Assembly: GCA_035221665.1 (NCBI GenBank)
Contig: CM069165.1
Location: forward strand, 19,220,001-19,284,000
DNA length: 64,000 nucleotides
Source of the DNA: Okamejei kenojei
Lineage: Eukaryota
Direction of reading: 5' to 3'
The translations under genes were made by a program, and so were the position numbers. Within the stretch, counting starts at the first letter, position 1. Every line of letters starts with the position of its first letter. The notes beneath the pieces were generated by a model. The model was not told the DNA's origin, searched no databases, and saw nothing but the letters and a program-made list of their open reading frames with translations. Below are positions 859 through 3,150 of this stretch, piece after piece.

Positions 859-1190
859 ATTAGTTTAGTTTAGTTTAGAGAAACCACGTGGAAACAGGCC
901 CTTCAGCCCACAGAGTCTGCACCAACCAGCGATCCATGCACATTAGCACTATCCTATACACACTAGAGACAATTTTACATTTTGTACCTAGCCAATTAAC
1001 CTACAAACTTGTACGTCTTTGGAGCGTGGGAGGAAACCAAAGATGTGGCAGGAAACCAAAGATCTCGGAGAACACCCACGGGGTTACGGGGAGAATGCAC
1101 AGACAGCACCCATTGTTGGGATCGAACCCGGGTCTCTGGCACTGTAAGCGTTGTAAGGGAGCAACTCTACCGCTGCGCCACAGTGCGCCC
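859..1190 (-). mobile_element. HE1-type tRNA-derived SINE, near full length
   Basis: Minus strand has box A (tggcgcagcgg), box B (ggttcgatccc), V-SINE core (ggtttcctccca), CR1-like tail (gggctgaagggcctgtttcc) and (taaac)n end. Confidence 0.9.
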
Positions 1191-1220
1191 GGGATGTACT
1201 GGAAGAATAGCAAAAATGAC

Positions 1221-1274
1221 GGGGTGGAAGATTGCAACCCTCACGTGGTCCGTCCTGTTTCGACTAATGCAATC
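1221..1274 (+). ncRNA. minimal HDV-like self-cleaving ribozyme (predicted)
   Basis: P1 GGGGTGG/CCGTCCT, P2 GATTGCA/TGCAATC, P3 ACC/GGT, L3 CTCACGT, mini-P4 T-TTCG-A, J4/2 CTAA. Activity untested. Confidence 0.8.
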
Positions 1275-1347
1275 AACTCGACGTGCACACACAGAAGATC
1301 AAATAGAACAAGTTGTCCTACAACTTTAGGCTGTGCACGCCACACGA
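1221..1347 (+). mobile_element. short non-autonomous retroelement with 5' HDV-like ribozyme (Ingi/Vingi-like by inference)
   Basis: Flanked by the direct repeat aagaatag(aaa)caaaaatgac (1203-1220 and 1348-1368); no pol III boxes; structured 5' and 3' halves. Confidence 0.8.
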
Positions 1348-1644
1348 AAGAATAGAAACAAAAATGACCAGCAGTCCTTTGAGGGGATAATGCAATGGTA
1401 CAAAGCCACACTTAATGATCACTGCTTATGGCTCAGTATATCAGCACTGTCATAGGTAGTCTTGAACCTGAGCACAAGTTTCTGCAAGGAATAGTTTTCA
1501 AAGAGTCATCTTATTTTTTGTAAATGTCTGGCTCTACAAAGCAGAAGGCTTGCAAAGGGTACATAAATGAAAATCAAACTTTTGGGCACTTCAAAAATTG
1601 AACAAAAATTTGTGACTTTAAAGACCATATTCAGCAATTTCTAG

Positions 1645-1805
1645 AAACTAAGAACTGCCGCTGTCTGTTTATTAAAAAAAGACACAAAGTACTGGAGAAA
1701 CTCAGTCGGCCTGGCAGCATTTCTGGAGAACCTGGATAGGTGACCCGAAACATCACCCATCGATTCTACCCACCGAATTACTCCAGCACTTTGTGTCTTT
1801 TTTTT
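1645..1805. mobile_element. palindromic Penelope-like terminal-repeat remnant
   Basis: aaaaaaagacacaaagtactggag ... ctccagcactttgtgtctttttt inverted arms around gacccgaaacatcacc. Confidence 0.75.
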
Positions 1806-3123: not shown

Positions 3124-3150
3124 CTTTTCACCTTTTGGACCAGGTAAGCC
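3124..3150 (-). CDS. COL13A1: collagen exon, 27 nt, GLPGPKGEK
   Basis: tattttttcgcag|GGCTTA...GAAAAG|gtgagc; Gly-X-Y, same peptide as in COL23A1. Confidence 0.9.

Follow-up and report, generated by a model that had tools for sequence, protein, structure and literature searches.

A short element built from the ends of an APE+RT LINE and headed by a probable P4-less HDV-like ribozyme in Okamejei kenojei

The window analyzed here is a stretch of 64,000 nucleotides from Okamejei kenojei (GenBank assembly GCA_035221665.1, contig CM069165.1, positions 19,220,001 to 19,284,000 of the forward strand). It holds a short retroelement within a collagen-like gene (Table 1). Apart from the collagen-like exon inside the window, a second minus-strand Gly-X-Y exon with AG/GT borders lies 1.5 kb before the window start. 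Collagen-like exons thus flank the element on both sides, which makes it intronic and antisense to the gene, the latter as a preliminary description of this DNA had proposed; its intron is further 3′ in the gene than the exon at 3124-3150. The element is bounded by two exact copies of the 10-bp sequence CAAAAATGAC, the left one flush with G1221. We found the empty site in DNA contigs of a related organism (organism L, run X23), which join 1210 directly to 1359 and omit 148 bases, with 10 letters at the joint that fit both sides and with single-copy depth. Organism H (X18) has the insertion, since its contigs cross both junctions. The retroelement of about 130 bp described earlier is therefore a real insertion between target-site duplications (TSDs), although its length is refined to 138 nt, and the cleavage site predicted for it, 1220/1221, does coincide with the TSD boundary. 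A separate, high-copy tRNA-derived SINE lies 30 bp from the element and presumably resembles the HE1 type of sharks and rays. Several of the contigs compared here fuse the head of this SINE directly to G1221-type starts, indicating that insertions beside it recur.

Table 1. Features at the locus, in window coordinates
Feature	Positions	Strand	Basis or remark
tRNA-derived SINE, separate neighbouring element	861..1190 (3′ boundary approximate)	-	B box; high repeat depth
Left target-site duplication, 10 bp	1211..1220	+	last base C1220 is the -1 nucleotide; empty site in organism L
Whole short non-autonomous element, 138 nt including degenerate GAA tail	1221..1358	+	TSDs, family, 5′ ends, empty site
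P4-less HDV-like ribozyme fold, 54 nt	1221..1274	+	predicted cleavage 1220/1221; descriptor match, covariation, same head on LINE
P1	1221-27/1250-56	+	7-bp pairing
J1/2	1228-29	+	2 nt
P2	1230-36/1268-74	+	7-bp pairing
P3	1237-39/1247-49	+	3-bp pairing
L3 loop	1240..1246	+	C1240 is a private change from the family U (U20 equivalent), partner G1245
J4/2	1264-67	+	predicted catalytic C1264
Rest of LINE-derived 5′ UTR	1275..1299	+	about 1282-1289 predicted to pair with the 3′ end
Joint specific to the short element, 18 nt	1300..1317	+	absent from three LINE copies; predicted small hairpin with 1318-1326
3′ end taken from the LINE (last codons plus 3′ UTR), with GAA-type tail	1318..1358	+	86-100% identity to LINE 3′ ends over 25-35 nt
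Right target-site duplication	1359..1368	+	exact repeat, empty site
Collagen-like exon, host gene	3124..3150	-	Gly-X-Y codons, AG/GT borders

The head of the element has the nested double-pseudoknot order of HDV-like ribozymes, with P1, P2, and P3 fully paired (17 of 17 pairs in the window copy, in the majority-type short copy L002, in the LINE head L110, and in L284 and L228 of the distant families). P1, P2, P3, J1/2, L3, G1257, and J4/2 all stand where the preliminary description had placed them. Its vestigial P4 did not hold up: G1257 and C1264 are separated by just 6 nt, in which no more than one U-A pair can form, so the ribozyme is P4-less, and a hairpin is found at that place in relatives. 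The L3 sequence CTCACGT and the second G.U pair in P1 do occur in the window copy, but they are private to it and not features of the family. Across three families, the element's own and two distant ones, the G at +1 forms either a wobble (G1.U) or a pair (G1-C), and the C-N-A-A of J4/2 reads CTAA, CGAA, or CCAA, with CTTA in one family B copy (L284) as the exception. The U20.G25 pair and P1.1 (C22-G38 with an adjacent U.U) are present in the family majority and in both distant families; the window copy, with C at the U20 position, does not have the complete set. J1/2 is short, at 2 nt, and this counts against the ribozyme reading; in the Agam-2-1 ribozyme, a J1/2 of 0-1 nt left little or no activity (PMC4908430). 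For the lack of P4, the theta ribozymes provide an active precedent (PMC10879173).

We searched with an HDV descriptor requiring a 7-bp P1, a 6-7-bp P2, a 3-bp P3, a 7-nt L3, G, and C-N-R-A. On both strands of the window it matched only the head at 1221-1274. It had no match in 3.84 Mb of first-order Markov resamples and 61 matches in 1.45 Mb of fetched loci, all 61 of them family members. Because the descriptor was composed with the target known, covariation is the stronger test. An Rfam scan of window positions 900-1700 gave no match at E<=10 (an Rfam match does not define the class), and plain minimum free energy (MFE) folding of the head, a method that cannot form pseudoknots, recovered P2 alone at an unremarkable z of +0.78.

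The element is one of a large family. A DNA search returned 1,464 candidates, of which the 40 scored were 94-100% identical, and exact matching of a 31-nt body pattern counted at least 6,307 copies, the reversed control giving 0. The two main core variants, CTAA and CGAA, had 2,934 and 1,301 exact matches. The preliminary description had suggested a search for other genomic copies and for 5′ ends piling up at G1221, and we found both. Among 30 copies picked by their 3′ body alone, and thus unbiased for the 5′ end (L198 and L199 being one duplicated insertion), 26 begin at G1: 23 by alignment and 3 by eye (L178 and L196, each with a change at base 2, and L201, with an internal deletion). The other four are 5′-truncated and start at 8, 19, 46, and 78. 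An exact TSD of 8-15 bp (mode 11) accompanies 46 of 67 full-length copies, and in 36 of these 46 it is flush with G1. The variable TSD length, the GAA tails, and the occasional 5′ truncation (4/30) are marks of target-primed reverse transcription. By eye, the copies have no upstream sequence in common, save at duplicated loci or where they were inserted into the same repeat.

The sequence identifies the short element as a bipartite non-autonomous LINE with an internal deletion, which joins LINE nt 1 to about 80, an 18-nt joint, and the last ~35 nt of the LINE with its tail. We rejected a tRNA-, 5S-, or 7SL-headed SINE identity, given the LINE-derived head, the lack of an A box and of a strict B box (there are two loose B-like matches with one mismatch), and the lack of a tRNA call on the element. 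Of the SINE-like family suggested earlier, the multicopy family thus stands and the SINE type does not. Its promoterless state, also suggested earlier, is a putative one: Pol III boxes are missing, but Pr77, its trypanosome counterpart, combines promoter and ribozyme (PMC3185411). Short elements were also seen inserted within a LINE 5′ fragment, with one copy split by another repeat (L068 999-1130; L022).

A LINE with 1,590 candidate 3′ fragments has 3′ ends matching the last 35 nt of the short element, and the 5′ end of this LINE bears the same head. A LINE sharing both ends, such as the preliminary description had advised looking for, is thus at hand as a 3-kb APE+RT element. Its length is 3.0-3.1 kb; copy L135 measures 3,043 bp from G1 to the GAA tail and has a flush TSD. 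In copy L116, the reverse transcriptase (RT) match was strong (E 9e-29), the APE and zinc-knuckle matches were weak, and RNase H gave no match. The closest intact relative, P0001 (1,019 aa, 75% identical over the RT part), has APE and RT only. RTE LINEs are also without RNase H, and a C-terminal Cys/His knuckle is a feature of the I group (Ingi/Vingi) rather than of RTE; the partner LINE has this knuckle. The partner is likely Vingi-type, an assignment drawn from its size, its domain set, and the knuckle. Vingi LINEs have been described with a single ORF containing APE and RT and with no RNase H (PMC13708176), and the partner has this organization. PDB and Atlas searches returned no clade label for it. 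In the proposed mobilization by an Ingi/Vingi-type LINE, the partner with shared ends is therefore found, and its Vingi clade is inferred.

All LINE copies inspected have a broken ORF. An in-frame ATG upstream of the APE start is kept in 7 of 14 LINE 5′ copies; six of these seven have it at a distance of about 108 nt from G1. The 5′ ends of the LINE are ragged, with G1 reached exactly in 3 of 30 loci (by eye). Many copies (L059, L067, L069, L082, L097, L106, and others) carry an inverted 5′ segment resembling the product of twin priming, whose junction lies at G1 or a few bases short of it. In L106 it lies exactly at G1, which is consistent with LINE RNA beginning there. At about nt 80 of the LINE 5′ UTR (L133, L135), an ATG directly followed by TAG precedes the main ATG and may be a minimal uORF.

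To the family of the short element and its LINE we added distant LINE families, drawing on an alignment of 39 out of 120 listed homologs and on 78 metagenome loci. The proteins of the distant families are ~30-47% identical to P0001. In L228, the sole strict descriptor match in 630,716 bases lies 161 nt upstream of the ORF match. Family B was first spotted by eye, after which a motif search located it in 8 loci, most of them 5′-cut or decayed; P1 and P2 are complete in its copy L284, and part of the family has a 6-nt P1 strand. Base pairs were tabulated by anchored parsing, with family B parsed by eye. The covariation in P1, P2, and P3 proposed earlier as a check is present: all 17 pairs held across the three families, and in 11 of the 17 both partners had changed (2 pairs of P1, all 7 of P2, and 2 of P3), a comparison that covers three lineages. 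The equivalents of U20, C22, G25, G38, and the J4/2 C were retained, as was the 2-nt J1/2. A P4 hairpin is present in both distant families and absent in that of the short element. The HDV descriptor had no match in L207 (with an intact ORF), L211, or L218; at L207 (P0008), an intact 1,021-aa relative, a 9-bp hairpin lies upstream of the ORF. No relatives turned up when metagenome contigs were scanned with a single protein or viral contigs by alignment, and a pattern from run X1 that suggested a changed P2 had 0 matches in this genome. On this comparison of sequences, the HDV-like fold is a non-chance feature.

RNA reads came from one polyA library of organism L, made with an unknown protocol, from which we mapped 6% of the run on positions 1150-1480. 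In that library, molecule starts do not pile up at 1221, with both strands pooled and with the poor retention of 5′ ends that is usual in fragment libraries, and 145 reads extend upstream of 1221 into diverse unrelated flanks. First mates over the head numbered 156 on the plus and 75 on the minus strand (p 1e-7), against 326 and 331 over the neighbouring tRNA-SINE. If the usual stranded convention applies, the polyA RNA of this one library is two-fold depleted in sense-oriented copies. The deficit agrees with cutting of host transcripts and also with other causes.

Within the family, the fifth pair of P1 is U-A in 15/15 LINE heads and U.G in 93 of 96 short copies, and common head variants fall in J1/2 and at the N of C-N-A-A. 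Aside from the two private to the window, head variants reaching at least 5% of RNA reads are either unpaired (1228, 1262, 1265) or pair-keeping (1252, 1256). All pairs and core bases are retained in 8 of 23 unbiased copies. A changed catalytic C has 39 exact genome matches against 2,934 for the family sequence. T1249C, which creates an A.C mismatch and breaks P3, has 176 against 2,934, ~12 times the T1240C count; the 12 such copies inspected (L285-L296) have mixed subfamily backgrounds, and one of them is compensated. We read the frequency of T1249C as that of a probable mutation hotspot.

The window copy is not among the intact head types. It has two private changes, a U20C-type change at 1240 and a G.U pair at 1253. 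The family majority in RNA reads is T at 1240 (222/231) and C at 1253 (205/220), and exact genome counts at 1240 are 2,934 for the family T and 15 for the window-type T1240C. Moreover, its C1220 at -1 could extend P1 onto G1257. According to PMC13635239 and PMC4836649, U20.G25 positions the catalytic Mg2+, and a -1 base extending P1 reduced the activity of the L1Tc ribozyme (PMC3185411), so this copy is probably impaired. With the U20C-type change, the extra G.U in P1, and C at -1, it is likely a weakened, inert member of the family, and its private changes make it ill-suited to the cleavage test proposed for it earlier.

We think it probable, with good confidence, that the family is a short retrotransposon derived from the ends of the 3-kb APE+RT LINE, and that its first 54 nt are a P4-less HDV-like ribozyme freeing the RNA before G1 for copying by the LINE protein. 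Read-through transcription would yield host-fused RNA containing the element. The head would likely cut this RNA just before its first base in a Mg2+- and C1264-dependent reaction that leaves a 5′-OH. The fold may then shield the uncapped 5′ end while the LINE protein recognizes the 3′ end or GAA tail, and target-primed reverse transcription in trans would insert copies of an RNA whose 5′ end is fixed at new sites. The L1Tc/NARTc ribozyme (PMC3185411) and the R2 SIDEs (PMC3414825) are active precedents. Several observations speak against this reading: weakly, the missing pile-up of RNA starts and the reads that run into upstream flanks; the P3-breaking variant; the minority of intact heads; the short J1/2; the ragged LINE 5′ ends; the relatives with no descriptor match; the three-lineage basis of the covariation; the broken ORFs of the LINE copies inspected; and the missing Rfam match.

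We regard as unlikely, though worth weighing, a second reading that accepts the fold as real but has an internal Pol II promoter as the main determinant of the 5′ end, with a slowly cleaving pseudoknot that mainly shields the RNA or aids protein binding or translation. Trypanosome Pr77 is indeed both promoter and ribozyme (PMC3185411), and the fold itself raised the insertion efficiency of R2 templates (PMC11331408). The absent pile-up of RNA starts, the short J1/2, and the frequent A.C variant also fit such a promoter; what fits it poorly is that the element starts exactly at base 1 of a 7-bp P1 and that the catalytic C is kept in three families. Moreover, a copied cap might leave a G at -1, and G is not in excess there (6/51 copies). 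We consider it improbable that the ribozyme works in the LINE and is a passive relic in the short family. A deletion derivative would inherit the head regardless, most copies are decayed, and the A.C variant is common, but head changes at the subfamily level are pair-keeping or unpaired, and the A.C copies are spread over several subfamily backgrounds, which fits a hotspot better than a dead master. It is hardly credible that an ordinary short repeat matches the pseudoknot pattern by chance: the missing Rfam match and the insignificant MFE z-score would agree with it, but the resamples held no match, and the covariation that places the same fold, in different letters, at the 5′ ends of distant LINEs refutes it.

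There are two further leads. The first is the base at -1, which is T in 30 of 51 copies not picked by the window flank, or 59% against a background of 28% (p 5e-6); among copies with a flush TSD it is T in 19 of 28. The enrichment is limited to -1 and does not extend to -2 to -6 (copies L147-L206, L285-L296). HDV cleavage activity by -1 base is reported as U>C>A>G (PMC1874588); a T bias would be equally expected from a nick preference or from annealing of an untemplated A. The second lead is pairing between the ends of the element. Beyond the ribozyme, a segment of the 5′ UTR can pair with the 3′ UTR in L264, L276, and L236 (family B) and in L152 and L172, and L264 and L276 differ by a G-C/A-U swap within the helix (by eye). 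For this pairing in family B, 1, 9, and 78 of 2,000 shuffles were as good, and the segment was the best window along the element in two of three copies. The z was about -4 in two older-type short copies and -1.6 in the window copy. The pairing was not significant in two LINE copies of this genome (1556 and 1000 of 2000 shuffles did equally well) or in L211 (81/500), and the L207 3′ UTR had no preference for the 5′ region. Tentatively, and with more doubt than confidence, we suggest a broader scheme in which Vingi-type LINEs across animals use a 5′ HDV-like ribozyme, shrunk in this lineage to a 54-nt P4-less core present thousands of times in the genome. Their RNA would close by 5′-3′ pairing, which would explain the two-ended parasites; insertion after T would supply new copies with U-1, the base preferred in HDV cleavage; and intact sense copies would cut host transcripts.

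If the head does cleave, a minimal P4-less HDV-like ribozyme, a form reported almost only from phages (PMC10879173), would be shown to occur thousands of times over in the genome of an animal, and the ribozyme-bearing clades would gain a Vingi-type LINE. Cleavage would also bear on a question posed as open in PMC5786205, why only RTE, Ingi, Vingi, and R2 yield two-ended non-autonomous elements. Vingi-1 is under development as a gene-writing tool in which driver and donor RNA both carry the native 5′ UTR (PMC13708176), a use that a self-cleaving, end-pairing 5′ UTR would directly serve. The LINE, the two short subfamilies, and the two distant families form a natural variant series with which cleavage could be tested cheaply.

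Among known systems, the closest in plan are NARTc, RIME, and SIDER with the L1Tc/ingi Pr77 of trypanosomatids, where a short partner likewise shares the 5′ HDV-like ribozyme of an APE-type LINE (PMC3185411, PMC4035085). Insertions are dispersed and P1.1 is 1-2 bp in both. As reported for NARTc-type elements, the TSD is 7-11 nt (8-15 nt here), the ribozyme has 77 nt with P4 (54 nt without P4 here), and the element has a trypanosomatid host and poly(A), whereas ours has an animal host, a GAA tail, and a partner without RNase H. The R2 SIDEs of Drosophila likewise combine a 5′ ribozyme with the LINE 3′ end by internal deletion and are moved in trans (PMC3414825), but R2 is RLE-type and specific to an rDNA site, its ribozyme region is ~184 nt (PMC6765202), and its SIDEs are rare, while the family here is dispersed in thousands of copies. 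With Vingi LINEs and such internally deleted derivatives as Vingi-1_EE, our pair shares the single ORF, the APE+RT set described without RNase H, a length of ~3 kb, and bipartite derivatives (PMC5786205, PMC13708176). The RTE-derived Bov-A and RTESINE likewise combine the two ends, 5′ and 3′, of an APE+RT LINE, and some RTEs are predicted to carry ribozymes (PMC5786205, PMC4494074). The minimal HDV-like (theta) ribozymes resemble the head in having no P4 and, as is predicted here, a cleavage site at G1 and the catalytic C in J4/2 (PMC10879173). According to that source, nearly 99% of P4-less ribozymes come from phages, often beside tRNAs, and added bacterial and eukaryotic sets (human, mouse, protist) gave 12 theta hits, all bacterial; here the fold heads a retroelement in a 2.76-Gb animal genome. 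In our search of published papers, neither this family nor a Vingi ribozyme was found described; Repbase and the supplements of PMC5786205 may already contain one or the other. The class itself is already known from the R2 SIDEs and NARTc/RIME. The apparent novelty lies in finding the minimal form without P4 in the genome of an animal, and in a Vingi-type partner.
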